Source: Actinomycetota bacterium (lineage in GTDB: Bacteria > Actinomycetota > Actinomycetes > Mycobacteriales > Mycobacteriaceae). Taken from it: a stretch of DNA of 64,000 nucleotides. The stretch's first letter is position 1. Every line of letters begins with the position of its first letter. Position numbers and translations under genes: made by a program. Where the stretch lies: positions 30,580-94,579 of the forward strand of contig JBKPSU010000008.1 in assembly GCA_046735135.1 (NCBI GenBank), in the 5' to 3' direction. The notes under the pieces were generated by a model. It did no database searches. It saw nothing but the letters and a program-made list of their open reading frames with translations, and was not told where the DNA came from. Positions 4,810-24,443 of the stretch are shown here, piece by piece.

Positions 4810-5343
4810 TCAGACGGTCCGGCGCTCGCGTTCGTTGGCGAGTTCAACGGTGACCACGTCGAGCGCCATCGACTGGTGATACCCGCGACGCGCCAGCATC
4901 CCCACGAGCCTGCGCATCACCTTGGCGTCATCGTCGTCGCCGAGGCGCTCCCGGCGCAGCTTGTCACGGACCAGCTGTTCGGCCCGCTCCCGCTCCGCGC
5001 CTGCGTCGATATCGGCAAGGGCAGCAGTGATCACCTCGTTGTCCACGCCTTTGGTGCGCAGCTCGGCAGCCAAGGCGCGCTTGCCTTTTCCGGCATTGAC
5101 CCCCCGCGAACGCACCCACTGCTCGGCGAAGCCGGCATCGTCGACGAGGCCCACCTCGGCCAGCCGGTCGAGCACCTGGGCACTGACGTCGTCGGGGTAG
5201 CCCCGCTTGGTCAGCTGGCCGGCCAGCTCGGCCCTGGTGCGAGCCCTCGCGGTGAGCAGGCGCAAGCAGAGCGTCCGCGCCTGCTCCTCGCGGGAGAGTT
5301 CAGCCGACTTAGAAGTCAACGGGGGCGGGCAGGACTTCGTCAT
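4810..5343 (-). CDS. recX: RecA regulator RecX
   Basis: RecX repeat architecture ([24 protein letters not shown]...). Its 5' end overlaps the recA 3' end by 35 nt, as in other mycobacteria. Confidence 0.95.
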
Positions 5344-7453
5344 CGGTCACCACGGCGCCAATACCGAGCTTTTCTTTGATCTTCTTCTCGACCTCGTTGG
5401 CCACGTCGACGTTTTCCATCAGGAAGGTGCGCGCGTTCTCCTTGCCCTGGCCCAGTTGCTCGCCCTCGTAGGTGAACCACGAACCGGACTTGCGGATGAA
5501 GCCCTGCTCGACACCCATGTCGATGAGCGAGCCCTCCTTGCTGATGCCCTTGCCGTAGAGGATGTCGAACTCGGCCTGCTTGAACGGCGGCGAGACTTTG
5601 TTCTTGACCACCTTGACGCGGGTGCGGTTGCCGACCGCGTCGGTGCCGTCCTTCAGCGTCTCGATTCGCCTGACGTCCAAACGAACGGAGGCGTAGAACT
5701 TCAGCGCCTTTCCGCCCGTTGTCGTTTCGGGCGAATTGTGCACCATGACGCCGTCGGCAAAGTAGTTGTGCGAGCCTTCGACCTCGATGTCGAAGCGATT
5801 CATGATGGGATAGTCCGTCTTCGACTCGATCTCGGTGACACGTGCCGGCATCAGTTGCATCGTTTGCTCAACAAACTGCGGTTCCAACCTGAACTGGCCA
5901 CGGAAGCGCGGTAGCAGCTTGTATTCCATGGACGGATGCACATATGGCGCAATCAGCTCCTGGAACTTTGCGCTGGCCTGCGTCGAGAAGACCAGCATTG
6001 CCTTGCCCCGGGAACCGGCGTATCGCAAACGGACATCGAGCCCATGAGTGTCCCGCAGATAGTCACGCAGGCGCACTCGCGATCCCTCGCTCATAGCCTC
6101 CACATGGACCTCGATTCGCCCGCTGCCGCCCTCGGTACGTTGCTGCAGCCCCTTGGAGCGCACACTGAACGACCCGTCGTCCATGTACCAGATCGCCAAC
6201 GCTAACGGCGTGAGCGCCTTCAAGTACTCCTCGGAGAGGACCTTCTTACCGTCGCCCAGGTACACCGCGGACCTCAACTCGTGAAGCTCGGCGAGGGGGG
6301 TAAAGTCGGCGAACACTGCACCCTTGCTGTTACTGGTGCGGCAGTGTGGGATATTCCCCAGCAGCGAGACTTTCCAATCGAGATAGTCCGACTGCCTCGC
6401 CCCGTGTCCCATACGGAGCCGGGCAGATTCCGAATCTTGTCGCACGGGTGGAGATAGGCATCCGTCGCCCATCAACGTACCCAGCACAACTTCCCACTGC
6501 TGATCGCTGAGCAGGCTTGGTTGCGCCAACATCACTCGATCGCCAACACGAATGTCTTCAGCTTCACGCCAGCCACCCGGAGTGCGGATGAGATGGTTAC
6601 GCGTCATCGCCAAGCGGGCATGGCCATGTCCTGACCCGCCGCCAGCCCGGTCGACTTTGAAGTGCAGGAACTCTTCGGTCTTGCCATTGTTGAACCAATT
6701 AGTCACCTTGCGAGGCACAATTTGGCCGGACTCGAAGTCGTAGGACAGGACCTCTACATCCATCTTCTGGTTCACAATCTTGCCGAGCTTTTCCGTCGAA
6801 CCATCGGCGAGAATGACATTGGTGTACCAGGACCCGCACCCGAACATTACTCCGATCTTCTCCCGAAGCTGGTTGATGAAGATCGCGGTGGTGCCCGAAT
6901 TGTTCAGTGCGCCGGTCATCTTCCGCAGTGCCTGACTCATCAGCCGGGCCTGCAGGCCGACGTGGCTGTCGCCCATCTCGCCTTCGATCTCGGCGCGCGG
7001 CACCAGCGCGGCCACCGAGTCGATGACCAGGATGTCCAGCGCTCCGGACCGGATCAGCATGTCGGCGATCTCCAGCGCCTGCTCACCCGTGTCGGGCTGC
7101 GACACCAGCAGCGAGTCGGTGTCCACGCCGAGCTTGCTGGCGTACTCCGGGTCCAGCGCGTGCTCGGCGTCGATGAACGCCGCGATGCCGCCCGCCGCTT
7201 GGGCGTTGGCGACCGCGTGCAGCGCGACGGTGGTCTTACCCGAGGATTCCGGGCCGTAGATCTCGACGACACGGCCGCGCGGCAGCCCGCCGATGCCGAG
7301 CGCCACGTCCAGCGCGATCGAGCCGGTGGGAATGACGGAGATCGGCTGGCGCACTTCCTCGCCGAGCCGCATCACCGAGCCCTTGCCGAAGTTCTTGTCG
7401 ATTTGCGCGAGTGCCAGCTCGAGGGCTTTCTCGCGATCAGGGGCCTGCGACAT
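5309..7453 (-). CDS. recA: Recombinase RecA precursor containing an intein (714 aa; 346 aa after splicing)
   Basis: [31 protein letters not shown] start at ATG 7453. Walker [10 protein letters not shown]. The sequence is interrupted after KIGVMFG and resumes at [23 protein letters not shown]. The 36-codon upstream extension in the ORF track covers the promoter elements and is rejected. Confidence 0.95.
5735..6838 (-). mobile_element. RecA intein (368 aa) with LAGLIDADG homing-endonuclease domain
   Basis: Starts at Cys ([14 protein letters not shown]) directly after extein GVMFG. Block B is TRNH. LAGLIDADG-like motifs [10 protein letters not shown] and [11 protein letters not shown] are present. 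Ends GVMVHN, followed by Ser (+1) of SPETTTGG. Confidence 0.9.
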
Positions 7454-7503
7454 GGGGTTGGTCTCCGTCCTTGCGGTGATCGGTTCTTGATCGGTTGGCC
7501 GTG

Positions 7504-7526
7504 ACGTTAGAGGTAGGTGCCGACAA
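7504..7526 (-). promoter_or_regulatory. RecA-NDp-like (PafBC-type) promoter motif upstream of recA
   Basis: The minus strand reads TTGTCGGCA-CCTACCTC-TAACGT. This fits the published tTGTCRgtg-N8-TAnnnT pattern and lies about 50 nt upstream of the recA ATG. Confidence 0.6.
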
Positions 7527-7554
7527 GTTGTCGTCCCGCTGTCGCCACAGTAGA

Positions 7555-7568
7555 CGAACACGTGTTCG
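7555..7568. promoter_or_regulatory. LexA SOS (Cheo) box
   Basis: Perfect palindrome CGAAC-ACGT-GTTCG (mycobacterial consensus TCGAAC-N4-GTTCGA). It lies about 100 nt upstream of recA and about 83 nt upstream of the divergent hypA. Confidence 0.85.
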
Positions 7569-7650
7569 ATTCAAGCTGACACGCCGATCGTCGGCGGGTC
7601 GACGCGAAATCGGCCTATCGTGGGGTCACGCCGAAAGCGATCGGACAGAC

Positions 7651-8895: not shown

Positions 8896-9951
8896 ATGCC
8901 AACTGAGGCAGCAGTCAAAGCGGAAGAAGCCTTGATCCATGTGCTGTGGATCAATGCGGGGTTGAGTTGTGACGGCGATTCTGTGGCGCTGACTGCCGCC
9001 ACGCAACCGAGCATCGAGGAGATCGCCCTTGGCGCGCTCCCCGGCCTGCCCAAGATCGCCGTGCACTGGCCCCTGATCGATTTCGAGTGTGGCCCAAACG
9101 GAGGTGCGGACGACTTCCTCGAGTGGTTCTTCAAGGCCGAGCGGGGGGAATTGGAACCGTTCGTGCTGGTCGTCGAGGGTTCCATCCCGAATGAGCAGCT
9201 CAAAGATGAAGGCTACTGGTGCGGGTTCGGTAACAACCCCGAGACCGGCCAGCCGATGACGACGAGCGAATGGCTGGACCGGCTCGCGCCCAAAGCGACC
9301 GCAATCGTCGCGATGGGAACCTGCGCCACTTACGGCGGTATCCATGCAATGGCGGGTAATCCGACCGGAGCCATGGGGGTGCCCGACTATCTCGGATGGG
9401 ACTGGAAGAGCAAGGCAGGAATTCCGATCGTCTGTGTGCCGGGGTGCCCTGCCCATCCGGACAACATGGCCGAGACGCTGACCTATCTGCTGTATATGGC
9501 CACCGAACAGGCGCCGATGATTCCGCTTGACGAGGCGCTGCGACCAAAGTGGCTGTTCGGCGCCACCGTACACGAGGGCTGTGACCGGGCCGGCTACTAC
9601 GAGCAAGGCGATTTCGCGACCGAATACGGCTCGCCGAAATGCATTGTGAAGCTGGGCTGTTGGGGGCCGGTCGTCAAGTGCAACGTGCCTAAACGGGGCT
9701 GGATCAACGGCATCGGCGGGTGCCCGAACGTCGGTGGCATCTGTATCGGATGCACGATGCCCGGCTTCCCCGACAAGTTCATGCCGTTCATGGATGAGCC
9801 GCCCGGCGGCAAGGTGTCGACAACGGGTTCGCGCATGTATGGGTCGGTGATCCGGAGCCTGCGCCAAGTGACCGGTCGGACGGTCGACAAAGAGCCGAAG
9901 TGGCGCCAGCCCGGAACGAAACTCACGACGGGGGCCACTCGCACCTGGTAG
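8896..9951 (+). CDS. hhyS: [NiFe]-hydrogenase small subunit, group 1h/5 type, no Tat signal
   Basis: Proximal-cluster region LWINAGLSCDGDS. Further Cys clusters GCPAHPDN, CDRAGYYEQGDF, KLGCWGPVVKCNV, GGICIGCTMPGFPD. The N-terminus has no RRxF twin-arginine motif. Confidence 0.9.
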   Translation: MPTEAAVKAEEALIHVLWINAGLSCDGDSVALTAATQPSIEEIALGALPGLPKIAVHWPLIDFECGPNGGADDFLEWFFKAERGELEPFVLVVEGSIPNEQLKDEGYWCGFGNNPETGQPMTTSEWLDRLAPKATAIVAMGTCATYGGIHAMAGNPTGAMGVPDYLGWDWKSKAGIPIVCVPGCPAHPDNMAETLTYLLYMATEQAPMIPLDEALRPKWLFGATVHEGCDRAGYYEQGDFATEYGSPKCIVKLGCWGPVVKCNVPKRGWINGIGGCPNVGGICIGCTMPGFPDKFMPFMDEPPGGKVSTTGSRMYGSVIRSLRQVTGRTVDKEPKWRQPGTKLTTGATRTW

Positions 9952-10049: not shown

Positions 10050-11846
10050 ATGACAACGACCATTCCGGAGCCGTCACACGTCAAGCGCGACCCCGGCCAG
10101 CTCGTCGAGATGGCGTGGGATCCGATCACCCGAATCGTCGGCAGCCTCGGCATCTACACCAAGATCGACTTCGACAACAAAGAAGTGGTGGAATGCCACA
10201 GCACGTCGTCGATCTTCCGTGGCTACTCGATCTTCATGAAGGGCAAGGATCCTCGCGACGCGCACTTCATCACCAGCCGCATCTGCGGCATCTGCGGTGA
10301 CAACCACGCCACCTGCTCCTGCTACTGCCAGAACATGGCCTACGGGGTGAAACCGCCGCATCTCGGCGAGTGGCTGATCAACCTCGGCGAGGCCGCGGAA
10401 TACATGTTCGACCACAACATCTTCCAAGAGAACCTGGTCGGCGTGGACTACTGCGAGAAGATGGTGTCCGAGACGAACCCGGGTGTGCTGGCCAAGGCCG
10501 AGAACACCCAGGCGCCGCACGCGGACATGCATGGTTACCGGACGATCGCCGACATCATGCGCGCGCTCAACCCGTTCACCGGCGAGTTCTATCGGGAGGC
10601 CCTCCAGGTCAGCCGGTGGACGCGAGAGATGTTCTGCCTCATGGAAGGTCGCCACGTCCATCCGTCCACGCTGTATCCCGGCGGCATCGGCACCACGGCC
10701 ACCATCCAGTTGATGACGGACTACATGAGCCGGCTGATGCGCTATGTCGAGTTCATGAAGTCGGTCGTGCCGATGCACGACGACCTTTTCGACTTCTTCT
10801 ATGAAGCACTGCCCGGCTACGACCAGGTGGGGCTGCGTCGCACCCTGCTGGGTTGCTGGGGCTCGTTCCAGGACCCGGAGGTCTGCAATTTCGCATACAA
10901 GGACATGGAGAAGTGGGGCAACGCCATGTTCGTCACGCCGGGCGTGGTGATCGACGGCAAGCTGCACACCCACTCGCTGGTCGACATCAACCTGGGCATC
11001 CGAATCCTTTTGGGCAGTTCCTATTACGACGACTGGTCCGACCAGGAGATGTTCGTCAAGACCGACCCGCTGGGTAACTCGATTGATCGACGACATCCAT
11101 GGAACCAGCACACCAACCCGCGTCCACAGAAGCGTGACTTCGATTCGAATTACAGCTGGGTCATGTCCCCACGCTGGTTCGACGGCACGGACCACCTAGC
11201 GCTGGACACCGGCGGCGGACCGTTGGCCCGGCTGTGGTCGACGGCTTTGGCCGGCCTGGTTGACATCGGCTATGTGAAGGCCACTGGCAATAGCGTGCAG
11301 ATCAATCTGCCGAAGACCGCGCTCAAGGGCCCGGTGGAGCTGGAATGGAAGGTGCCGCAGTATGGCAGCAACACGCTCGAGCGCAACCGCGCGCGAACGT
11401 ACTTCCAGGCCTACGCCGCCGCCTGCGCACTGCATTTCGCCGAGAAGGCGCTCGTCGAGATTCGAGCGGGTCGCACCAAGACGTGGGAGAAGTTCGACGT
11501 GCCAGAAGAAGGCATCGGCTGCGGGTTCACCGAAGCGGTGCGCGGGGTGTTGAGTCACCACATGGTGATTCGCGACGGCAAGATCGCGAACTATCACCCC
11601 TATCCGCCGACGCCGTGGAACGCCAACCCTCGGGACAGCTACGGGACGCCAGGTCCGTACGAGGATGCGGTTCAAGGTCAGCCGATCTTCGAAGAGAACG
11701 ATCGGGAGCACTTCAAGGGCATCGACATCATGCGCACAGTGCGCAGCTTCGATCCGTGCCTGCCCTGCGGCGTGCACATGTATCTCGGCGAGGGGAAGAC
11801 ACTGGAGAGGTTGCACTCCCCGACCCAATCCGTTACCGGGGAATGA
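10050..11846 (+). CDS. hhyL: [NiFe]-hydrogenase large subunit, group 1h/5 (high-affinity Hhy type)
   Basis: L1 motif TSRICGICGDNH (nt 10272-10307) and C-terminal L2 motif SFDPCLPCGVH. Both match the group 5 signatures as I recall them. Confidence 0.93.
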   Translation: MTTTIPEPSHVKRDPGQLVEMAWDPITRIVGSLGIYTKIDFDNKEVVECHSTSSIFRGYSIFMKGKDPRDAHFITSRICGICGDNHATCSCYCQNMAYGVKPPHLGEWLINLGEAAEYMFDHNIFQENLVGVDYCEKMVSETNPGVLAKAENTQAPHADMHGYRTIADIMRALNPFTGEFYREALQVSRWTREMFCLMEGRHVHPSTLYPGGIGTTATIQLMTDYMSRLMRYVEFMKSVVPMHDDLFDFFYEALPGYDQVGLRRTLLGCWGSFQDPEVCNFAYKDMEKWGNAMFVTPGVVIDGKLHTHSLVDINLGIRILLGSSYYDDWSDQEMFVKTDPLGNSIDRRHPWNQHTNPRPQKRDFDSNYSWVMSPRWFDGTDHLALDTGGGPLARLWSTALAGLVDIGYVKATGNSVQINLPKTALKGPVELEWKVPQYGSNTLERNRARTYFQAYAAACALHFAEKALVEIRAGRTKTWEKFDVPEEGIGCGFTEAVRGVLSHHMVIRDGKIANYHPYPPTPWNANPRDSYGTPGPYEDAVQGQPIFEENDREHFKGIDIMRTVRSFDPCLPCGVHMYLGEGKTLERLHSPTQSVTGE

Positions 11847-13478: not shown

Positions 13479-14123
13479 ATGACAGACGTCACGTTCGCGG
13501 TGGTCGGCGTCGAACCGGAGCCCTACGCGGTGACTCCGGTGTTGAACGCCCGGCTCGGCATCGCCGCGGTCGGAGACGACCCGATCCACACGATCGCGCT
13601 GCGCGCTGCGGTGCGCATCGAGCCGATGCGGCGCGGCTACTCCGACGAGGAGGCCGCCGGGATCGTCGACCTGTTCGGCCCGCGCGAACGCTGGGCCACC
13701 ACCCTTCACACATTCCAGTGGCTGCAGACCTCGGCGATGGTGCAGGGGTTCAGCGGCGCCACTCAGGTCAACCTCCCGCTGGAGTGCACCTATGACTTCG
13801 AGGTCGCGGCGTCGAAGTATCTGCACGCCCTGCGCGACGGCGCCGTCCCACTGCAATTCCTCTTCAGCGGAACGATTTTCTCGCAGGGCGCGCGGGGCTT
13901 CGCGGTTCAGCAGGTCCCGTGGGACCGTGAGGACCACTTCGAGATGCCCGTGTCGGTGTGGCGCGACCTGATGCAACAGCACTATCCGAACACCGGCTGG
14001 CTTCGCCTGGACAGGGACACGCTCGATGGACTGGCGGCGTATCGCTCGGCGCGCGGCCTGCTGTCCCTCGACGAGGCGGTCACCTCGCTCCTCGATGCCA
14101 GTTCGACGGAGGAGATCCGATGA
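13479..14123 (+). CDS. Conserved hydrogenase-cluster protein of unknown function
   Basis: 214-aa ORF with good high-GC codon usage, co-directional within the operon. The next gene's start overlaps its stop. Confidence 0.7.
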   Translation: MTDVTFAVVGVEPEPYAVTPVLNARLGIAAVGDDPIHTIALRAAVRIEPMRRGYSDEEAAGIVDLFGPRERWATTLHTFQWLQTSAMVQGFSGATQVNLPLECTYDFEVAASKYLHALRDGAVPLQFLFSGTIFSQGARGFAVQQVPWDREDHFEMPVSVWRDLMQQHYPNTGWLRLDRDTLDGLAAYRSARGLLSLDEAVTSLLDASSTEEIR

Positions 14124-15460
14124 ACGCGAACTGGGACCGTGCCCGCGCCGTCGCCGACGCGGTGCTCTACGAGGGCTATCTGCTCTACCCGTACCGCGCC
14201 AACTCGCGAAAGAACCAGACGCGCTGGCAGTTCGGGGTACTCGGGCCCGCGGGCGCAGCCGACGCGGGCATCGGCGAGGACGACACGCTATCCGCTCAGG
14301 TAGTGGTTTCGCCGCGGACGAACCCGACGGTCTACGTCGTGGTGCGCTTCCTCCAACTGCAGCACCGCGGTGTGGAAAAGGATGTGGGTGGCGGACGGTT
14401 CGAACCCGTCGAGGAGCTGGTATCAGGGTCGCGGTCCTGGTTGCGGTGGGACGAGGCCGTGGAACGGGAGCTCTCGTTCGGGCCTTTCGACATCGAATCG
14501 CAGCTGCCGCAGACGCTTCCAGTCGACGTCGAGGCGGGCACCGACATCGAGAACGTCGACGGCGGCAGACTGGTCCGCACCCGCCGCGCCCTGCGCGCAC
14601 AACTCGAGATCACCGCAGACTACGACGACGGGTTCGTGCGCCTGACGGTGACGATGCGCAACACCGCGGCGCCCGCCGATGACAAGGACGAGGCGATCGC
14701 GGTGTCGCTGATCGGCACCCACCTACTCGCCGAGGTCACCGACGGCGAATTCGTGTCACTTCTCGAACCACCGGCATCGGCCGACAACGCCGTCGCCCGA
14801 TGCCGTCACCATCGCTGCTTCCCCGTGCTCGCCGGGCCGCCAGGCGACCACGCGCTGGTGCTGGCATCGCCGATCATCCTCTACGACCACCCCGAGATCG
14901 CCGAGCAGAGCGAGGGCGCACTGTACGACTCCACCGAGATCGATGAGATCCTCACGCTGCGCATCATGACGATGACCGACGAGGAGAAGGCGGTGGCACG
15001 CGCAACCGATCCACTCGCCGCACGGATCATCGACCGGTGCGACTCGATGTCGCCGGAGGCGTTGCTCAACCTGCACGGCGTGCTGCGCAACCCGCATGCC
15101 GTCGGCGACGAACCGGCCCTGATCCCGGAGATACCCGACGGGGTCGACTGGTGGGACCCGTTGGCCGACAACGCCGTAGCGCCCGACGTCGATGCCGTGC
15201 TGGTGAATGGTGTGCGGGTGAGCCGCGGCAGCAGGGTGCGGTTGCGTCCGTCGCGTCGCGCCGACGCGCAGGATCTGTTCTTCGCGGACAAAATCGCGCG
15301 GGTCACCTCGGTGCACGAAACTGTCGACGGTGACCAACACGTCGGCGTCGTACTCGAGGACGACCCGGCGGCCGATCTGCACGAGTGGTACGGCCGCTTC
15401 CTGTACTTCGCACCCGATGAGGTCGAACCGTTGAGTGAAAGGAATCCGACATGGATGTAG
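14120..15460 (+). CDS. Conserved hydrogenase-cluster protein of unknown function (446 aa)
   Basis: ATG 14120 overlaps the upstream stop (ATGA). MNANWDRARAVADAVLYEGYLLYPYR start. No motif I recognise. Confidence 0.7.
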   Translation: MNANWDRARAVADAVLYEGYLLYPYRANSRKNQTRWQFGVLGPAGAADAGIGEDDTLSAQVVVSPRTNPTVYVVVRFLQLQHRGVEKDVGGGRFEPVEELVSGSRSWLRWDEAVERELSFGPFDIESQLPQTLPVDVEAGTDIENVDGGRLVRTRRALRAQLEITADYDDGFVRLTVTMRNTAAPADDKDEAIAVSLIGTHLLAEVTDGEFVSLLEPPASADNAVARCRHHRCFPVLAGPPGDHALVLASPIILYDHPEIAEQSEGALYDSTEIDEILTLRIMTMTDEEKAVARATDPLAARIIDRCDSMSPEALLNLHGVLRNPHAVGDEPALIPEIPDGVDWWDPLADNAVAPDVDAVLVNGVRVSRGSRVRLRPSRRADAQDLFFADKIARVTSVHETVDGDQHVGVVLEDDPAADLHEWYGRFLYFAPDEVEPLSERNPTWM

Positions 15461-16070: not shown

Positions 16071-16331
16071 ATGTGTTTGGGAATTCCCGGTCAGGTCGTG
16101 CAGATGCTCGAGGGCTACGGCGGCCAGCTCGCGCTTGTCGACGTGGCAGGCGAGCACCGCAAGGTCAACGTCGGAATGATGCCCGAGGAGACCTTCTCCC
16201 CCGGTGACTGGGTGATCATTCACATGGGTTTCGTCGTCGAGAAGACCGACAAGGCGGGCGCCGATGCCGCGATGGCCGGGCTGGAGATGATGGGCCGCGG
16301 CCGTGACCCGGACATGGAGGCGTTCCCATGA
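16071..16331 (+). CDS. hypC: Hydrogenase assembly chaperone HypC/HupF
   Basis: MCLGIPGQVV N-terminus, 86 aa. Confidence 0.9.
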   Translation: MCLGIPGQVVQMLEGYGGQLALVDVAGEHRKVNVGMMPEETFSPGDWVIIHMGFVVEKTDKAGADAAMAGLEMMGRGRDPDMEAFP

Positions 16332-18613
16332 CCGGGCGCCGCCGGCTGCGGATCTGTGTGCGCGGCGTCGTGCAGGGTGTCGGCTTCCGGCCGTTCGTCT
16401 ACACGTGCGCGGCGGCACTCGGCCTGAGCGGCTCCGTCCGCAACGACAGTGCGGGCGCCGTCATCGAGGTCGAAGGCGACACTTCAGCACTCGATGAGTT
16501 TGCCAACCGTCTCGTCGACAGGCCGCCGCCGCTGGCCGTCATCGAATCGGTTGACACGCAGGATATCCCGACCGTCGGGGGCACCGGCTTCACAATCGCC
16601 GACACGTCACGCTCCGGCGGTGGCCGCACCCTCGCCTCCCCCGACGTCGCCATGTGCGCCGATTGCGCCACCGAGCAGCGCGATCCCGGCGACCGCCGTT
16701 ACCGGCACGCCTTCGTCAACTGCACCAACTGCGGACCGCGCTTCACCATCATCGCGTCGCTGCCGTACGACCGCGCATCCACCACGATGGCGGGCTTTCC
16801 GATGTGTGGCGAGTGCGAACGCGAATACCACGATCCCGCGGACCGGCGATTCCACGCCCAGCCGGTCTGCTGTCCGAACTGCGGCCCGACTCTGCGGTAC
16901 CGGGCCGGTGACGGCGTGGCCGACGGCGAGTCCGCACTGAACGTGGCGCGCATGCTGCTTCGCGACGGCGGCGTGCTCGCCGTCAAGGGCATCGGCGGGT
17001 ACCACCTGGCGTGCGACGCCGGTAACGAGTCCGCGGTCGCCGAACTGCGGACCCGAAAGCGGCGTGGCGACAAGCCCTTCGCGGTCATGGTCGCCGACCT
17101 CGCGACCGCCCGCCGCATCGCCTCGGTCGACGAGGCGTCGCAGCGCCTGCTGTCCGGCCCGCAGCGGCCCATCGTGCTGATGCCCCGGATGCCCGGCGCA
17201 CGCGTCGCCGACTCGGTGGCGCCGCACAACCCCGATGTCGGTGTCATGCTGGCCTACACGCCGTTGCACTCGCTGCTGTTCGGCCTGCCGGGCGACCTGC
17301 CGGGACCGCCGGTGCTCGTGATGACCTCGGGGAACGTCGGCGGCGAGCCGATCTGCTTCACCGATGACGATGCGCTGAAACGACTTTCACACCTGGCCGA
17401 TGGCTGGCTGATGCACGATCGGGACATCCTGGTTCCGTGCGACGACTCCGTCGCACGGATCGTGGCCGGCGTCGAGTTGCCGATCCGGCGTTCCCGCGGC
17501 TATGCGCCGCTTCCGGTCGCGCTGCCGGTGCCGGTGCCACCCGCGCTGGCCGTCGGGGGCGATCTGAAGAACACCTTCGCGGTCGCCGAACACAAGTACG
17601 CCTGGTTGAGCCAGCACATCGGCGACATGGACGATCTCGCGACCCTGGCCGCATTCGACTCCGCCGAACAACATTTGGAGGCGCTGACCGATGTCACCCC
17701 GGAGGTCGTGATCGCGGACGCCCATCCTGGCTACCGGTCCACCGCATGGGCGGAACGCCACGCGCGCGGGCGACCCGTTCGTTCGGTGCAGCACCACCAT
17801 GCGCACATCGCCGCGGTGATGGCCGAGCACGGTATGGACGGCACACAACGGGTACTCGGATTCGCCTTCGACGGAACCGGTTACGGACCGGACGGGGCGG
17901 TCTGGGGTGGTGAGGTGCTGCTCGCCGACTACAAGGGCTATCAGCGGTTGGCACAGCTGAAGTACGTGCCGCTGGCCGGCGGCGACGTCAGCGTGCTGCG
18001 CCCGTACCGGATGGCGCTGGCGCATCTGTGGGCGGCCGGTCTGGCCTGGCGCGACGATCTGCCGCCGGTGGCCGCCTGTCCCGATGACGAGCGCACGGTG
18101 CTGGAACATCAGCTCGAGACCGGTCTGGGCTGCGCGCCGACGTCGAGCATGGGCAGGCTGTTCGACGCCGTTTCGTCGCTGGCTGGCGTCCGCCAGGTGG
18201 TGGCATACGAAGCGCAGGCGGCGATTGAACTGGAGGGGTTGTCGCGCAACGCCCTTCGGGGCGCAGAGCGCTATGCGTTCGACATCGACGCGGGCCGACT
18301 CCCCGCGACGATCGATCCCACCCCGGTTCTCGCCGCGATCGTCGACGACCTGCGCGCAGGCACACCGGCCGGCGTGATCGGGGCGAAATTCCACCGCGCC
18401 GTCGCCGATGTGGTCGTCGACTGCGCGGGCATGGAGGACACCGGTGGCCAACCGATCGCATTGTCCGGCGGGGTGTTCCAGAACGCACTACTGCTGCGTT
18501 TAGTGCTGGACGGCTTGCGGGCCAAGGGGTTCCGGGTGATCACGCATCGCCGCGTGCCACCAAACGACGGTGGAATCGCACTCGGACAGCTTCTGGTCGG
18601 GACGGCGGGGTGA
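16328..18613 (+). CDS. hypF: Carbamoyltransferase HypF
   Basis: Acylphosphatase-like N-terminus (VRGVVQGVGFRPFVY), two zinc-finger pairs (CADC...CTNCGPRF; CGEC...CPNCGP), YrdC-like and Kae1-like regions. ATGA overlap with hypC. Confidence 0.95.
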   Translation: MTGRRRLRICVRGVVQGVGFRPFVYTCAAALGLSGSVRNDSAGAVIEVEGDTSALDEFANRLVDRPPPLAVIESVDTQDIPTVGGTGFTIADTSRSGGGRTLASPDVAMCADCATEQRDPGDRRYRHAFVNCTNCGPRFTIIASLPYDRASTTMAGFPMCGECEREYHDPADRRFHAQPVCCPNCGPTLRYRAGDGVADGESALNVARMLLRDGGVLAVKGIGGYHLACDAGNESAVAELRTRKRRGDKPFAVMVADLATARRIASVDEASQRLLSGPQRPIVLMPRMPGARVADSVAPHNPDVGVMLAYTPLHSLLFGLPGDLPGPPVLVMTSGNVGGEPICFTDDDALKRLSHLADGWLMHDRDILVPCDDSVARIVAGVELPIRRSRGYAPLPVALPVPVPPALAVGGDLKNTFAVAEHKYAWLSQHIGDMDDLATLAAFDSAEQHLEALTDVTPEVVIADAHPGYRSTAWAERHARGRPVRSVQHHHAHIAAVMAEHGMDGTQRVLGFAFDGTGYGPDGAVWGGEVLLADYKGYQRLAQLKYVPLAGGDVSVLRPYRMALAHLWAAGLAWRDDLPPVAACPDDERTVLEHQLETGLGCAPTSSMGRLFDAVSSLAGVRQVVAYEAQAAIELEGLSRNALRGAERYAFDIDAGRLPATIDPTPVLAAIVDDLRAGTPAGVIGAKFHRAVADVVVDCAGMEDTGGQPIALSGGVFQNALLLRLVLDGLRAKGFRVITHRRVPPNDGGIALGQLLVGTAG

Positions 18614-18617
18614 CACC

Positions 18618-19373
18618 ATGACCGCCCTACACGAACAGAAACTTCCCGCGGGCTACACGTTATTCGCACGCTACGCCTTTCCGCCCAACGAGCTCGGCTA
18701 CTGCGGTCCCGCTGACGCCGAGGTGTTGTTGCGCGGCGACGACGCGGCCGCGGTCGCCGCCCACGCCAAGGAGTTCGACGGCGCGTGGCCCTATCTGCGG
18801 GCCATCGCCGACGCAGCAGGCACACCGGATGCGTTGGACGCCGATGTCGTGCGCAGTTACTGGGTCGGCGGCCCGCAGCTGGATCGGGTTGACCCAGAAG
18901 GTCTGCTGCAGACGCTGCGCCGCGCCTTCCAGGGTCAAACAACGGGACTGCTGTTCGACCTGAATCAAGCGCGGGGCGCACTGGCCCATCACAGCTTCCA
19001 CGTCTTCGTGGTGTACCCCTGGGTGCGGTTTCTCGACCGGGACGCGGCGACGGCGCTTAAGGTCCTGCAGGACTGCCGGATCCGATGGGGCATCGTGGAA
19101 TCCGTCGAAGACGAACACGCGGTGATTACGACCAGCCCGCTGACATTCGCCGACGGCACCCTGGCACTCGGCGCGCCGCGGACCGAGCGGGTGCGCTGGA
19201 GGAAGAACAGGGTCTCGCTGATCGGGCCACCGGCGCCGGGCGACGTGGTGTCCGCGCATTGGGACTGGGCATGCGGCGTGCTGGACGAAGACGAATGTGA
19301 GGCGCTGACGGCGGCGACGCAGACGACACTGGATCTCGTGAACGCCGCCCGCGACGAGGAGCGAAACCGATGA
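18618..19373 (+). CDS. Conserved hydrogenase-cluster protein of unknown function (251 aa)
   Basis: ATG 18618 lies 5 nt after the hypF stop. MTALHEQKLPAGYTLFARYAFPPNELGYCGP start. No catalytic motif recognised. Confidence 0.7.
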   Translation: MTALHEQKLPAGYTLFARYAFPPNELGYCGPADAEVLLRGDDAAAVAAHAKEFDGAWPYLRAIADAAGTPDALDADVVRSYWVGGPQLDRVDPEGLLQTLRRAFQGQTTGLLFDLNQARGALAHHSFHVFVVYPWVRFLDRDAATALKVLQDCRIRWGIVESVEDEHAVITTSPLTFADGTLALGAPRTERVRWRKNRVSLIGPPAPGDVVSAHWDWACGVLDEDECEALTAATQTTLDLVNAARDEERNR

Positions 19374-20116
19374 CAGTCAATAAAGAACAGGGCGGGGGTT
19401 ACGTCGACACGAATCTGTCCGCCGACCTGGCTGCCGCAGCACTGGACCTGGCCCGCAAGTTTCACGACGGCGCCACGCTGTGGGTGATCTCTCCCCAGTG
19501 GGAGCCGCACGCCCATCACGTCGCCGTCGAGTTCGTCCATCCCGTGATCATGGGTAAACGGGCGCTGCCGTCGGTTGCCCTCGTCGACCCCGACCCGGTG
19601 GCACAGGCCAGGGTTGCCACCCAACCCGGCGACCTGCTGATGGCGGTGGCGTCTGCCGACGAACCCGCGACGATCGACGCGATGCGGCGGGCGCCGGCGT
19701 GGGGTGCGCTGACCTTGTGGATCGGCTCCGGTCCGCGCCCGCCCGCCGGCGCGGCGAACCACATCCTGTGGGTCGACTCCGACGATCCGATGGTGCCCGC
19801 CACCGGACGCTTCGTCCTGCTGTATCACCTGCTGTGGGAGCTCACCCACGTCTGCTTCGAGCATCCCGGTCTGCTGAAGCCGGCCCCGCAGGAGTGCACC
19901 GACGACGTCTGCGTGACGTGCAGTGACGAAGGGCGCCTCGCTGAAGTGATCCTGGAGCCCGCAGACCGGTTGGGGCAGGCCCTGGTTCGCACCAGCAATG
20001 GTGAGGAGTGGGTGGATGTCAGCGTGCTCGGCGATGTCGCGCCGAACGACCTTGTGCTGCTGCATGCGGGAACGGCGATCGCGCGCCTTGGCGATGCAGA
20101 GGAGGTGAACCGATGA
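19370..20116 (+). CDS. Degenerate SIS-like domain fused to a C-terminal HypC/HupF-like domain
   Basis: The N-terminal part aligns by eye to the GmhA/SIS fold but lacks the GNGGS and STSGNS motifs. The C-terminal part, CVTCSDEGRLAEVI...GEEWVDVSVLGDVAPNDLVLLHAGTAIARL, resembles a HypC barrel. ATGA overlaps at both ends. Confidence 0.65.
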   Translation: MTVNKEQGGGYVDTNLSADLAAAALDLARKFHDGATLWVISPQWEPHAHHVAVEFVHPVIMGKRALPSVALVDPDPVAQARVATQPGDLLMAVASADEPATIDAMRRAPAWGALTLWIGSGPRPPAGAANHILWVDSDDPMVPATGRFVLLYHLLWELTHVCFEHPGLLKPAPQECTDDVCVTCSDEGRLAEVILEPADRLGQALVRTSNGEEWVDVSVLGDVAPNDLVLLHAGTAIARLGDAEEVNR

Positions 20117-20799
20117 CCACACACGGCGAGAGCACCGAGAGCACGGGCTTTCTGTATCCGTTCATCGAGTCCGAGGAGACCGATGCCACCAGCCTGCTCG
20201 ACGATCTCTCCGCCTCGGCAAGGGGCAAGGCCGCCGAAAGCGCCCGCCTGCAACGGGAGTCGCTGCAGGAGTACGGGCCCGCACTGTCCGCGGCGGGAAT
20301 CGAGATGGCCGAGCGGTTCCTTCGCGGCGGTCGGCTCTACACCTTGGGCAACGGAGGCAGCTCCACCGACGCGGCAACATTGGCGTCGCTGTTCAGTCGT
20401 CCGGCGCAGGGCCGCGCGGTGGCGGCGTGGTCACTGGCCGCAGACGAGGCGGTGGTGACGGCACTCGGCAACGACGTGGGCTTCGAGCTGATCTTCAAGC
20501 GGCAGATCATCGCCCACGCCCGCGATCGCGATGTCGCCATCGCGTTGTCGACCTCCGGCAACTCCGAGGATTTGATGACGGCGATCACCGAAGCCAAGCG
20601 CCGAGGCCTGCTGACGATCGGGTTCTCCGGTCACGACGGCGGCCGGATGGCGGTGGCAGAGGACCTCGACCACTGCTTCACGGTGCACAGCCAGAGCATT
20701 CACCGCATCCAGGAGAGCCACGCCATGCTCGGCTTCCGGCTCTGGTCGGTCGCGCAGGAACACATGTCCCGTCCCCGTAATGGAGTGCACACTTCATGA
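20113..20799 (+). CDS. SIS-domain protein (phosphoheptose isomerase GmhA-like)
   Basis: Canonical SIS motifs LGNGGSSTDA and LSTSGNSEDL, and the HRIQESHAMLG helix. ATGA overlaps with both neighbours. Confidence 0.8.
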   Translation: MTTHGESTESTGFLYPFIESEETDATSLLDDLSASARGKAAESARLQRESLQEYGPALSAAGIEMAERFLRGGRLYTLGNGGSSTDAATLASLFSRPAQGRAVAAWSLAADEAVVTALGNDVGFELIFKRQIIAHARDRDVAIALSTSGNSEDLMTAITEAKRRGLLTIGFSGHDGGRMAVAEDLDHCFTVHSQSIHRIQESHAMLGFRLWSVAQEHMSRPRNGVHTS

Positions 20800-21896
20800 G
20801 CACAACCGACGCAATGACCTCGGCCGAACGCGAAGACCGCGTGCTGGAACGAATCGACAAGTTCCGCCAGCGCCGGCCGCGGCTGCTCGACGACGTGGTC
20901 ACCCTCGCTCACGGTGCGGGCGGGAAGTCGTCGGCCGCGCTCATGGACGCGGTGTTCCTCGAGGCGTTCCGCAACGAGGAACTCGAACAGCTCGGTGACG
21001 CCGCCGGGCTGCGCCTCCCGTCCGGTGAGCGGCTGGCCTTTTCCACCGACTCGTTCGTCGTTTCGCCGCGGCGCTTCCCCGGCGGTTCGATCGGCCACGT
21101 CGCGGTGCACGGGACGATCAACGACCTCGCGGTGTCGGGCGCTCGCCCGCAATGGCTTTCGGCCGCGTTCGTCATCGAGGAAGGGTTCCCGATCTCCGAG
21201 TTGCGGGAGATCGTCGCGGACATGAGCGAAGCCGCCGCCAAGGCAGGCGTGCAGATCGTCACCGGTGACACCAAGGTGGTCGGCAAGGGCGCAGCCGACG
21301 GTGTCTACATCTCGACCGCAGGCGTCGGTGTGATTCCCGAGGGCAGGCAGCTGTCGCGCGACCTCGTGCGGCCCGGCGACAAGGTGGTGGTGTCCGGCAC
21401 GATCGGCGAGCACGGGATGGCGGTCATGCTCGCCCGCGGCGACCTCGCCATCGACGCGGACATCGCCTCCGACACCGCGCCCGTCCACGAACTGGTCGAA
21501 CTGCTTCTGGCGGCTGCACCGTCGACGCGGTGGATGCGCGATGCGACCCGCGGCGGCGTCGGGACGGTGTGCAACGAACTCGTCAAGGACGCCCCGTTCG
21601 CACTCGTCCTCGACGAAGCGAGCCTTCCGATCGAACCGCAGGTGCTCGGCGCCTGCGACATGCTCGGCATCGACCCGCTTTACGTCGCCAACGAGGGCAA
21701 GTTCGTCGCGGTCGTCGCGCCGGATGAAGCCGATGCGGCCGTCGCCGCAATCCGGACGCATCCGCAGGGCGACCGAGCGACGGTGGTGGGCGAGATCATG
21801 CCGCAACCGAACGGCATTGTCGCGCTGAGGACTTCGTTTGGTGGCAGCCGAATCGTCGACATGCTCGTCGGCGACCCGCTACCACGAATCTGCTGA
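20796..21896 (+). CDS. hypE: Hydrogenase maturation carbamoyl dehydratase HypE
   Basis: AIR-synthase-like fold (LAHGAGGKSS, GDTKVV) and the diagnostic C-terminus PRIC. Confidence 0.95.
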   Translation: MSTTDAMTSAEREDRVLERIDKFRQRRPRLLDDVVTLAHGAGGKSSAALMDAVFLEAFRNEELEQLGDAAGLRLPSGERLAFSTDSFVVSPRRFPGGSIGHVAVHGTINDLAVSGARPQWLSAAFVIEEGFPISELREIVADMSEAAAKAGVQIVTGDTKVVGKGAADGVYISTAGVGVIPEGRQLSRDLVRPGDKVVVSGTIGEHGMAVMLARGDLAIDADIASDTAPVHELVELLLAAAPSTRWMRDATRGGVGTVCNELVKDAPFALVLDEASLPIEPQVLGACDMLGIDPLYVANEGKFVAVVAPDEADAAVAAIRTHPQGDRATVVGEIMPQPNGIVALRTSFGGSRIVDMLVGDPLPRIC

Positions 21897-21921: not shown

Positions 21922-22194
21922 ATGTGTCTGGGAATCCCCGGCCAGGTGGTCGACATCGTCGACGCCGAACAGTCCCTGGCCAAGGTCGACGTCAACGGCG
22001 TGCGCAGGAACATCAGCGTACGGCTGCTCGCCGACGACAATCTGCAGGTCGGTGACTGGGTCTTGGTGCACGTCGGGTTCGCGATGGCCCGGATCGACGA
22101 GCGCGAGGCCAAACTCACGCTCGACCAGGTGCAGAAGATGGGCGCCGACTACGTCAATGAGATCGAAGCATTCAACTCGTCCGAGATCGCTTGA
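21922..22194 (+). CDS. hypC: Second HypC/HupF chaperone
   Basis: MCLGIPGQVVDIV start at ATG 21922, with AAAGGAG RBS at 21908-21914. 90 aa. Confidence 0.9.
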   Translation: MCLGIPGQVVDIVDAEQSLAKVDVNGVRRNISVRLLADDNLQVGDWVLVHVGFAMARIDEREAKLTLDQVQKMGADYVNEIEAFNSSEIA

Positions 22195-22204
22195 GAGGCT
22201 TGAC

Positions 22205-23332
22205 ATGAAGTTCGTCGACGAATTCCGGGACCCGGCGGCCGCACGCGCACTGGTCAAATCGATCACCGAGCTCGCGTCCGAAGGCGAGTTCAAGTTCATG
22301 GAGGTGTGCGGAGGTCACACGCACACGATTTACCGGCACGGCATCGAACATCTGCTTCCAGAGTCGGTCGAGCTGGTCCATGGGCCCGGCTGCCCGGTGT
22401 GTGTGATCCCGATGGGCCGCGTCGACGACGCGATGTGGCTTGCCGAACAGCCGAACATCATCTTCACCACATTCGGCGACATGATGCGCGTGCCGGGCTC
22501 GAAGGGCAATCTCATCGAGGCCAAGGCGCGCGGCGCCGACGTGCGCTTCGTCTATTCCCCGCTCGACGCGCTGAAGGTCGCCGTCGACAATCCCGACAAG
22601 CACATCGTCTTCTTCGCCGTCGGATTCGAGACCACCGCACCGTCCACCGCCGTGACGCTGGTCCGTGCCCGCGCGCTCGGTGTGCGCAATTTCAGCATCT
22701 TCTGCAACCACGTCACGATCGTTCCGCCGATCAAGGCGATCCTCGAATCACCCGACCTACGGCTGTCCGGGTTCCTCGGGCCGGGTCACGTGTCCACGGT
22801 CGTGGGCCTTCGGCCGTATCGATTCGTACCCGAGGTGTACGGAAAACCGATGGTGGTGGCGGGATTCGAGCCGCTCGACATCCTGGCGTCGGTGCACATG
22901 CTGTTGCAGCAGGTCCGCGACGGGCGCTGCGAGGTGGAAAACCAGTACACCCGCGTCGTCCGACCCGAGGGCAACACCCAGGCGCTGAAGTTGATGGCCG
23001 AGACGTTCGAACTGCGGCCCCACTTCGAGTGGCGCGGGCTGGGTTTCATCTCGCAGAGCGCGTTGAAGGTCCATCGCGATTACGCCGAGTTCGACGCCGA
23101 GCTGAAGTTCGACATGCCCGGCGTTCGGGTCGCCGACCCCAAGGCCTGCCAGTGCGGCGAGGTCCTGAAGGGCGTCATCAAGCCGTGGGAGTGCAAGGTG
23201 TTCGGCACCGCGTGCACGCCCGAGACACCGATCGGTACGTGCATGGTCAGCCCAGAGGGTGCCTGCGCGGCGTACTACAACTTCGGCAGGCTGCACCGCG
23301 AGACCGCTCAGTTGCTGGGCCAACGCGGCTAG
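22205..23332 (+). CDS. hypD: Hydrogenase maturation Fe-S protein HypD
   Basis: MKFVDEFRD start, CGGHTH, GPGCPVCV, FAVGFETT, GFLGPGHVS(T) and C-terminal Cys cluster motifs. Confidence 0.95.
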   Translation: MKFVDEFRDPAAARALVKSITELASEGEFKFMEVCGGHTHTIYRHGIEHLLPESVELVHGPGCPVCVIPMGRVDDAMWLAEQPNIIFTTFGDMMRVPGSKGNLIEAKARGADVRFVYSPLDALKVAVDNPDKHIVFFAVGFETTAPSTAVTLVRARALGVRNFSIFCNHVTIVPPIKAILESPDLRLSGFLGPGHVSTVVGLRPYRFVPEVYGKPMVVAGFEPLDILASVHMLLQQVRDGRCEVENQYTRVVRPEGNTQALKLMAETFELRPHFEWRGLGFISQSALKVHRDYAEFDAELKFDMPGVRVADPKACQCGEVLKGVIKPWECKVFGTACTPETPIGTCMVSPEGACAAYYNFGRLHRETAQLLGQRG

Positions 23333-23885: not shown

Positions 23886-24443
23886 ATGAGCACAAAGCAA
23901 AAGGACATCATCGACGACATCATCACGGACCACCGTGAGGTGGAGGCCGTGTTCAAACAGCTTGAGACCAACGACAACCCGGCCACGCGACGGCAGCTCG
24001 TCGAGCACGTGGTCGCCGAGCTGGTGCGCCACTCGGTCGGCGAAGAGCAGTACCTCTACCCGGCGGCTCGAAAGGCATTGCCCGACGGCGACAAGATCGT
24101 CGACCACGAGCTGCACGAGCATGCGGAAGCCGAAGAGATCATGAACAAGATCGAGAAAACGGAGAAAGAGGACGCGGAGTTCGACAAGTTGGTGAGCGAA
24201 TTGATCAAGGACATCCGCCACCACATCGAGGACGAGGAGGGTGACCTCCTGCCGAAGCTGCGTGAGGCATGCGACGCCGAAGAGCTCGGCAAGCTCGGCG
24301 AACAGTTCGAAAAGGCCAAGAAGATCGCGCCGACGCGGCCGCATCCGTCTGCCCCTGACAAGCCGCCCGCGAACAAGATCCTCGATCCCGGCGTCGGGCT
24401 CATCGACCGCCTGCGGGACGCACTGAGCGGTCGCAACACCTGA
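23886..24443 (+). CDS. Hemerythrin-like (HHE cation-binding) domain protein
   Basis: His/Glu ligand pattern (DHREV...HSVGEEQYLYP...HELHEHAEAEE...IRHHIEDEE). GGGGAG RBS. Confidence 0.85.
   Translation: MSTKQKDIIDDIITDHREVEAVFKQLETNDNPATRRQLVEHVVAELVRHSVGEEQYLYPAARKALPDGDKIVDHELHEHAEAEEIMNKIEKTEKEDAEFDKLVSELIKDIRHHIEDEEGDLLPKLREACDAEELGKLGEQFEKAKKIAPTRPHPSAPDKPPANKILDPGVGLIDRLRDALSGRNT

Follow-up and report, generated by a model that had tools for sequence, protein, structure and literature searches.

Here we have analysed a 64,000-nt, high-GC stretch of contig JBKPSU010000008.1 (the window, by which we mean the whole stretch), whose + strand carries, between 8.9 and 23.3 kb, the locus of an uptake hydrogenase of the group 1h type. 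The genes are in the order hhyS, hhyL, a gene for a NifU/Rieske protein, DUF5947, DUF6084, a gene for a protein of 446 amino acids (aa), a maturation protease gene, hypC, hypF, P1, P2, P3, hypE, hypC and hypD, in which P1, P2 and P3 designate the three genes, and their products, that lie between hypF and hypE. P2 and P3 both contain a sugar isomerase (SIS) domain, named SIS-A and SIS-B, respectively, and it is this pair, embedded among the maturation genes, that forms the main subject of this work. The features of the locus are as follows:

8896 to 9951, + strand: hhyS, small subunit of the [NiFe]-hydrogenase (Pfam NiFe_hyd_SSU_C, 6e-24; Oxidored_q6, 2e-22)
10050 to 11846, + strand: hhyL, large subunit of the [NiFe]-hydrogenase (translation; tblastn)
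16071 to 16331, + strand: hypC copy 1, 86 aa, beginning with MCLGIPG (translation; ATGA overlap with hypF)
16328 to 18613, + strand: hypF, carbamoyltransferase (translation; 46-80% identity to hypF of related loci, among them the gene annotated as hypF in C. necator)
18618 to 19373, + strand: P1, DUF6390 protein of 251 aa (Pfam)
19370 to 20116, + strand: P2, fusion of SIS-A and a HypC-like domain, 248 aa (profile search, AlphaFold with Foldseek, hhalign)
20113 to 20799, + strand: P3, SIS-B, GmhA-like, 228 aa, with an N-terminal FLYPF extension (Pfam, NCBIfam, PDB search)
20796 to 21896, + strand: hypE, with the C-terminus PRIC (translation; ATGA overlap with P3)
21922 to 22194, + strand: hypC copy 2, 90 aa, beginning with MCLGIPG (sequence)
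22205 to 23332, + strand: hypD (translation; 63-95% identity to hypD in related loci)

The P1/P2, P2/P3 and P3/hypE junctions consist of ATGA overlaps, as does the hypC/hypF junction, and the gap between the end of hypF and the start of P1 is 4 nt; the run hypC-hypF-P1-P2-P3-hypE is therefore translationally coupled. The GC content at third codon positions (GC3) of P1, P2 and P3 is 0.78-0.81, which is normal for coding sequence in this DNA. Coordinates, coding GC3 and ATGA junctions all agree with the original prediction that three genes are located between hypF and hypE. HhyL shares 77% identity (tblastn) with the large subunit encoded at the C. necator pHG1 locus, which contains a single SIS gene. 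Matches to the window DNA among sequencing runs were found in soil and root metagenomes, all of them DNA and none RNA.

The N-terminal half of P2 had been described as a degenerate SIS fold. Pfam gives no SIS domain for this half, HupF_HypC being the sole Pfam match of P2, and the NCBIfam gmhA models do not match P2 either; the lone PDB match of the single sequence, a dihydrofolate reductase, was dismissed as a chance match. In a tblastn search of plasmids, aa 30-165 of P2 were found to be 31-37% identical to "SIS domain-containing" proteins encoded among the hyp genes of C. necator pHG1, Thermus thermophilus and Sulfobacillus. A family profile built from P2 homologues and the corresponding half of Thermus-type proteins, which are SIS-SIS fusions, retrieved from the PDB the phosphoheptose isomerase GmhA of B. 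pseudomallei (2xbl, E 1.5e-6) and also DiaA (2e-3). The AlphaFold model of the domain, computed from the same alignment as the profile, is an alpha/beta structure with a predicted local distance difference test score (pLDDT) of ~70-88, and Foldseek matched it to E. coli GmhA (2i2w, E 3.7e-8, TM-score 0.71), to B. pseudomallei GmhA and then to DiaA (3e-6). Profile and predicted structure thus confirm a GmhA-type SIS fold for this half of P2, which is degenerate in that GNGGS, the GND loop and STSGNS are replaced or deleted. The features recognised within P2 are:

19409 to 19879, + strand: SIS-A domain, aa ~14-170 (family profile against PDB GmhA, Foldseek, residue table)
19508 to 19540, + strand: His-rich motif H47-A-H-H50-V-A-V-E54-F-V-H57 (invariant columns; alignment to 2xbl)
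19901 to 20113, + strand: HypC-like domain, aa 178-248, with C181-V-T-C184-S-D-E-G and H232-A-G-T-A (hhalign, global alignment)

In the alignment to 2xbl, H50 and E54 of P2 fall on H64 and E68 of B. pseudomallei GmhA, two of its zinc ligands. The motif H..VEF.HP[VI] is present in 120/120 homologues of the P2 fusion type and in 120/120 of the Thermus type, and H57-P58 of P2 is peculiar to the hydrogenase-associated clade.

HypC and HupF have an essential Cys at position 2, which is exposed as the N-terminus. The C-terminal ~70 aa of P2, previously noted as resembling HypC, score 27.4 bits against Pfam HupF_HypC (PF01455) at aa 198-244, for a cut-off of 28.5; diverged homologues of P2 exceed this cut-off (30.8-37.7 bits), and PF01455 is precomputed for most of the close ones. 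When a profile of 114 such domains was compared by hhalign with one of 137 HypC proteins from related loci, a probability of 97.6% was obtained (E 4.6e-12), with homology extending over 56-65 columns. A global alignment places Cys181 of P2 on Cys2 of HypC and His232 on the HypC His; the CxxC motif is found at 79/80 loci and H.G.A at 74/80, and the His of the H-x-G-x-A motif in 96% of the 114 family members. The domain is similar to HypC, HybG, HupF and HoxL in these respects, and also in that the P2 gene adjoins hypD, hypE and hypF. It differs from them in being the C-terminal part of a 248-aa protein, in having its Cys within CxxC-S-D-E-G, and in occurring next to two ordinary hypC genes. For 19370-20116, a two-domain architecture was hence upheld, SIS similarity by profile search and structure prediction and HypC similarity by profile comparison.

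P3 is a different case. It matches Pfam SIS_2 (2e-12), and its best PDB match is GmhA (1tk9, 6e-26), followed by DiaA (1.4e-17). It carries LGNGGSSTDA and STSGNSEDL, neither of which is present in P2, also keeps the GND and RIQE segments of GmhA, and starts with the FLYPF N-terminus that is found in 79/82 SIS-B proteins. Its two phosphate loops, with their conservation among the aligned SIS-B proteins, are:

20347 to 20361, + strand: GNGGS loop, aa 79-83, predicted to bind sugar/phosphate (N and S kept in 80/81)
20548 to 20565, + strand: STSGNS loop, aa 146-151, predicted to bind phosphate (S, T, S, G and S kept in 81/81)

The NCBIfam gmhA models match P3 with E ~1e-30, yet the scores remain below the cut-offs (TIGR00441, 103.9 versus 209.45; NF010546, 110.9 versus 276). 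The best named matches of P3 are GmhA, and genome annotations as well as papers use the name gmhA, according to which P3 would be an ordinary sedoheptulose-7-phosphate isomerase of housekeeping heptose biosynthesis whose location in a hyp operon is due to chance. We consider this very improbable. At the four zinc positions of GmhA, all of them invariant among orthologues of that enzyme (PMC5705639), P3 has Thr, Leu, Gln and Phe, so that only the Gln ligand is left and three are missing; it reaches 104 bits where the gmhA equivalog cut-off is 209; and it is found in hyp operons at 80/80 loci, always together with SIS-A. The earlier description of P3 as a canonical SIS protein is therefore accurate for its phosphate loops, but not for its zinc ligands.

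The active-site positions were compared in an alignment in which E. coli GmhA, whose numbering is used here, was combined with 81 actinobacterial SIS-A domains, 81 SIS-B proteins, the C. necator protein and 37 fusions of the Thermus type. SIS-A keeps H61, E65 and H180 in 81/81 sequences, positions at which SIS-B has Thr (76/81), Leu (78/81) and Tyr or Phe (75/81), respectively. The converse applies to the remaining residues. N52 and S55 are gone from SIS-A and kept in SIS-B (80/81); the loop with N93-D94 is deleted from SIS-A and kept in 81/81 SIS-B; the S119-S124 segment is gone from SIS-A, whereas S119, T120, S121, G122 and S124 are kept in 81/81 SIS-B and N123 in 64/81; and Q172, which is Thr in SIS-A, is retained in all 81 SIS-B. 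D58 is likewise kept in SIS-B, in 80-81 of 81. With His, Glu, Thr and His at the zinc positions of P2, against the four residues of P3 given above, neither protein has the four GmhA zinc/catalytic residues on one polypeptide, but jointly they have all four. Judged by this alignment, then, P2 and P3 together retain every active-site residue of GmhA, and their degeneration is complementary. The original prediction had seen one broken and one canonical SIS copy; P2 is indeed degenerate, but P3 is not intact, and the two are better described as complementary halves.

In GmhA itself, the zinc ligands (H64/E68/Q175/H183 in B. pseudomallei) are fully conserved in orthologues, and the active site is located at the interface of three protomers and shows half-of-sites reactivity (PMC5705639). 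In a model of M. tuberculosis GmhA, the catalytic residues Glu66 and Gln173 come from separate monomers (PMC7705670). Because the sites of the GmhA tetramer are formed between protomers, a hetero-oligomer of P2 and P3 is the most likely arrangement. The exact complementarity, which is seen in two gene architectures and in several phyla, leads one to expect a GmhA-like A/B hetero-tetramer in which the number of complete composite sites is halved, and is not what would be expected of a decayed copy accompanied by an intact one, nor of a pure scaffold.

A scaffold role deserves consideration nevertheless. DiaA is the DnaA initiator-associating protein, which bridges DnaA molecules, and a dead DiaA-like scaffold was the first idea derived from P3 alone; it was dropped once the complementary residue table was available. 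According to this explanation, the SIS pair would have neither an enzymatic nor a ligand-binding function, but would oligomerise and hold together the HypC-like modules, HypD and the large subunit. DiaA is among the matches of both proteins in the profile, Foldseek and PDB searches described above, neither protein contains a complete GmhA site by itself, and the fusion to a chaperone-like domain would suit an adaptor. DiaA also offers a precedent for the recruitment of the GmhA fold to a non-sugar process, as the oligomeric partner of another machine, although its context is unrelated and the hydrogenase pair, in contrast to DiaA, keeps the GmhA catalytic set. A scaffold would not need all the catalytic and substrate residues of GmhA, which are kept in 80-81/81 sequences in one partner or the other as an exact complement, and the single-gene form of C. 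necator retains the full set; we therefore consider a pure scaffold unlikely.

A related possibility is a ligand sensor: a phosphosugar or nucleotide-sugar would be bound at the composite site but not turned over, and the carbon or energy status of the cell would in this way control cofactor assembly. RpiR/MurR/NanR regulators, in which the SIS domain is the sensor, are among the structural matches of P2, and the Hhy genes of M. smegmatis are induced by carbon limitation (PMC2799521). However, what is retained goes beyond the phosphate-binding loops and includes the residues for catalysis and zinc binding (His, Glu, Gln, His), and no DNA-binding or signalling domain is attached to either protein, which makes a ligand sensor quite an unlikely explanation.

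The linkage of the pair to hyp operons is strict. At least 568 matching stretches in GTDB species genomes were confirmed as relatives, and in the best 80 of these, all from Actinomycetota and the basis of the locus counts in this text, P2 lies next to P3, with hypF, hypE, hypC and hypD on their flanks (80/80); a distribution uncorrelated with hydrogenase loci, which would have counted against the original prediction, was thus not seen. DUF6390 is placed in the hypF-P2 interval, as in the window, or 3' of hypD as a ~37%-identical version. At 8 loci the large subunit is merely 22-26% identical to HhyL; these are probably group 2a loci, an assignment based on agreement of gene order with the Frankia description (PMC11879354) and not on a classifier. 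Searching with P2 among representatives of 50%-identity clusters gave 927 clusters, 437 of them at E <=1e-10, and many of these matches are full-length SIS-A-HypC proteins, down to ~36% identity. In three 50%-cluster representatives of 425-524 aa, SIS-A, a HypC-like part (31-38 bits) and SIS_2 are present on one chain, and these could be either real triple fusions or gene calls merged over the 4-nt overlap.

Several of the related genomes are worth mentioning individually. Mycolicibacterium frederiksbergense strains contain differing sets, P2 of AC80 being ~76% identical and that of DSM 45364 ~58%. Two paralogous P2-P3-hyp sets are present in the genome of Mycobacterium sp. UM_CSW, one beside an HhyL-like large subunit (~90% identical) and one beside a distant large subunit (~24%), the latter set being probably of group 2a. 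A contig binned as "Candidatus Sericytochromatia bacterium" contains a hyp locus with a P2 that is 82% and a hypD that is 94% identical, and is probably a mis-binned actinobacterial contig.

Two other architectures are informative about the origin of the pair. The first is a fusion of ~392-394 aa (e.g. WP_014511321.1) found in hyp loci of Thermus, Gemmatimonadota and Acidobacteria, which has the same A-then-B order as P2-P3: the 392-aa Thermus protein consists of SIS-A (36.7% identity to P2) followed by SIS-B (43% to P3). This family has at least 8000 candidate matches, and the best 120 are 68-99% identical to the Thermus query, their named members belonging to Thermus, Gemmatimonadota and Acidobacteria (Silvibacterium). 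The complementary pattern is present here too, in that domain 1 keeps H61/E65/Q172/H180 and domain 2 keeps the loops plus Q172/H180; the fusions differ from the P2/P3 pair in being a single chain without a HypC-like domain, in which SIS-A retains the Gln and SIS-B the C-terminal His. In the Thermus locus, the SIS-SIS gene overlaps a gene for a "Uxx-star family glutaredoxin-like (seleno)protein" (11043-11303 in the numbering of that locus), which precedes hypF; acidobacterial 1h loci, too, have been drawn with a glutaredoxin gene (PMC5900883).

The second is the C. necator H16 pHG1 protein (WP_011153996.1, 229 aa), which is 47% identical to P3 and 31% to the N-terminal half of P2, and which shares the hyp context and the clade motifs. 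In this case there is one SIS gene, between hypD and a separate hypC that is directly upstream of it; the protein has no HypC fusion, all listed GmhA active-site residues are present in it, and it is presumably a homo-oligomer. The Phe and Pro of EF-x-HP, the FLYPF of SIS-B, and a Trp that follows the C-terminal His are common to the two copies and the C. necator protein and absent in GmhA, which indicates that the duplication took place inside a lineage that was already dedicated to hydrogenases. With GmhA proper (2i2w, 2xbl, 1tk9), the N-terminal half of P2 and P3 have in common the SIS subfamily fold, P3 contributing GNGGS, GND, STSGNS and RIQE to the likeness and P2 the His-x3-Glu helix and the C-terminal His. 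They differ from it in that the site is incomplete in each protein singly, a HypC-like domain is attached to one copy, the motifs VEF-x-HPV and YH-x-LW-[ED]-x-x-H occur in the pair together with FLYPF at the N-terminus, and the genes are always located in hyp operons and not in heptose pathways.

The reading that we favour, with a probability of roughly 0.6, is that P2 and P3 act as accessory factors in the maturation of the oxygen-insensitive group 1h hydrogenase and share a split, HypC-tethered site of the GmhA type. The pair would derive from one GmhA-type ancestor that was already dedicated to the hyp operon, a state represented by the single gene of C. necator pHG1, and after duplication each copy would have lost those parts of the active site that the other retained. 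SIS-A would contribute the metal ligands His50, Glu54 and His153, and SIS-B the sugar-phosphate pocket formed by Asn80, Ser83, Asn120-Asp121, Ser146-Thr147-Ser148-Gly149 and Ser151, plus Gln200. The two would assemble into a hetero-oligomer, probably A2B2, with complete metal-plus-phosphosugar sites at half the number. The HypC-like domain of P2 (Cys181-x-x-Cys184, His232) may bring this site into contact with HypD or the precursor of HhyL, or may itself carry iron, and P1 probably supplies a further HypC-like barrel. The extra step served in this way would belong to the cofactor assembly of air-stable hydrogenases, and we infer that P2 and P3 would take part in Fe(CN)2CO assembly under air. 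What the analysis shows directly are the folds, the residue patterns, the fusions and the linkage to hyp operons.

It should be noted that several observations weigh against this reading. The association of P2 with P3, the binding of a metal and the binding of a phosphosugar-like ligand are all deduced from sequence. The assignment of the zinc ligands to chains follows statements and a model in the literature, not coordinates, and if H183 and Q175 are provided by the same chain, the composite actinobacterial site would have only His, Glu and Gln plus Tyr/Phe. The HypC-like domain of P2 (aa 171-248) has a pLDDT of only 33-56 in the AlphaFold model, in which strands are visible at low confidence, so that the claim of a HypC-like fold rests on profile homology. 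P2 alone falls just below the Pfam HypC cut-off. In addition, Cys181 is internal, within CxxC-S-D-E-G, in contrast to the N-terminal Cys2 of HypC, and would become N-terminal only if the protein is processed. Finally, the ancillary factors treated in a 2025 review of [NiFe] maturation include no SIS protein (PMC12134894).

Group 1h and 2a hydrogenases allow soil bacteria to live on atmospheric H2, and their assembly must occur in air. HypX is the aerobic synthase of the CO ligand. It resembles the SIS module in being encoded by an additional maturation gene that accompanies O2-tolerant hydrogenases of aerobes, but there is no kinship in sequence or fold, HypX being composed of a formyltransferase and a crotonase-like decarbonylase. 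A speculative extension, which we consider unlikely, is that the SIS-A/SIS-B/HypC-like module, together with DUF6390, is a HypX-independent, O2-compatible enzyme of cofactor synthesis, by which the CO ligand, or some other intermediate bound to iron, would be made or delivered; a phosphosugar would then be converted to a metal-bound enediolate next to the iron-carrying HypC-like domain. The idea is suggested by the occurrence of the SIS genes together with the air-stable 1h/2a hydrogenases that obligate aerobes possess, by a report on high-affinity H2 oxidisers according to which hypX is "not always present" in them (PMC4767420), and by a review that regards the origin of CO by routes other than HypX as the most pressing open question (PMC12134894).

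The association of "gmhA" with the operons of group 1h/2a hydrogenases is already known. The gene, or phosphoheptose isomerase, is marked in acidobacterial hydrogenase loci (PMC5900883); for Frankia hydrogenase loci, one article notes gmhA, citing Islam 2020 (PMC11879354); both genes are named phosphoheptose isomerase in M. indicus pranii (PMC3505973); and in A. ferrooxidans, the "GmhA" protein increases along with the Hyp proteins (PMC7735108). MSMEG_2706 ("gmhA") of M. smegmatis, which is located between hypE (MSMEG_2705) and hypF (MSMEG_2711) and is induced with the hyp genes (PMC5445863), is the likely orthologue in that species. A neighbourhood survey of 2025 lists "SIS domain" among the neighbours of hydrogenases (PMC12727194). 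The papers that we found assign no function to the gene, and the paired complementary SIS proteins with a HypC-like fusion appear to be undescribed in this literature.

The interpretation given in the original prediction is thus partly supported, its suggestion of an uncharacterised step or ligand being plausible, and the pair hints at a so far unstudied step in the assembly of air-tolerant hydrogenases. To our knowledge, the known maturation set (HypA-F and, in proteobacteria, HypX, HoxL/HupF and HoxV/HupK) contains no SIS protein, and hundreds of species from several phyla keep the SIS module in their hyp operons. The proposed split GmhA-type site with its HypC-like tether comes down to concrete residues that can be mutated, and the module may matter for the heterologous production of oxygen-insensitive hydrogenases. 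If the proposal holds, the pair would also provide a clean example of how a homo-oligomeric enzyme with inter-subunit sites evolves into an obligate hetero-oligomer.

P1, the third of the genes between hypF and hypE, had been listed as a 251-aa unknown. The gene stands as predicted, but its product belongs to a recognised family, since aa 10-245 match Pfam DUF6390 (PF19927) with 304 bits (E 1e-90), which is above the cut-off; a PDB sequence search with DUF6390 found no relative. In the AlphaFold model, the helical N-terminal part is of low confidence and is followed by a beta-barrel at aa ~156-222 (pLDDT ~70-92) and a long C-terminal helix. The best Foldseek match of P1 is HypC of T. kodakarensis (2z1c, E 0.019), and HypC from HypCD/HypCDE complexes (3vyu) matches with a TM-score of up to 0.74 and outranks generic OB-fold ribosomal proteins. 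Sequence matches to HypC are weak (Pfam HupF_HypC, E 0.059 at aa 198-232; NCBIfam hypC_hupF, 0.014), as is the hhalign comparison of the DUF6390 C-terminus with HypC (E 9e-4, probability 23-35%). Tentatively, the C-terminal barrel is thus probably HypC-like. The earlier count of three HypC-like modules at the locus stands for the two hypC genes and the P2 domain, and may have to be raised to four if the P1 barrel is real. Across 58 homologues of DUF6390, Cys29 (in the motif PPNELGYCGP), Cys153, Cys219, His125 and His214 are invariant; these could possibly be metal or redox residues, in a protein whose N-terminal part is poorly modelled.

As to the remaining genes, neither hypA nor hypB was seen beside the other hyp genes between 8.9 and 24.5 kb of the window; in M. 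smegmatis, hypA and hypB are placed upstream of the hydrogenase structural genes (PMC2799521). With a threshold of E <=0.001, Pfam gives no match for the 446-aa protein whose gene, at 14120-15460 (+), is located between those for DUF6084 and the maturation protease, and the equivalent position in C. necator pHG1 is annotated as "hypothetical protein". Just 3' of hypD, at 23886-24443 (+), a hemerythrin-domain protein (7.6e-20) is encoded that could be an O2- or iron-related partner, or be unrelated. Outside the hydrogenase locus, recA (5309-7570, - strand) contains an intein insertion with a LAGLIDADG homing endonuclease, RecA being matched in two stretches (1e-136), LAGLIDADG_2 at aa 359-536 (4e-37), and Intein_splicing also being matched; this interrupted recA is followed by recX (4810-5346, - strand).

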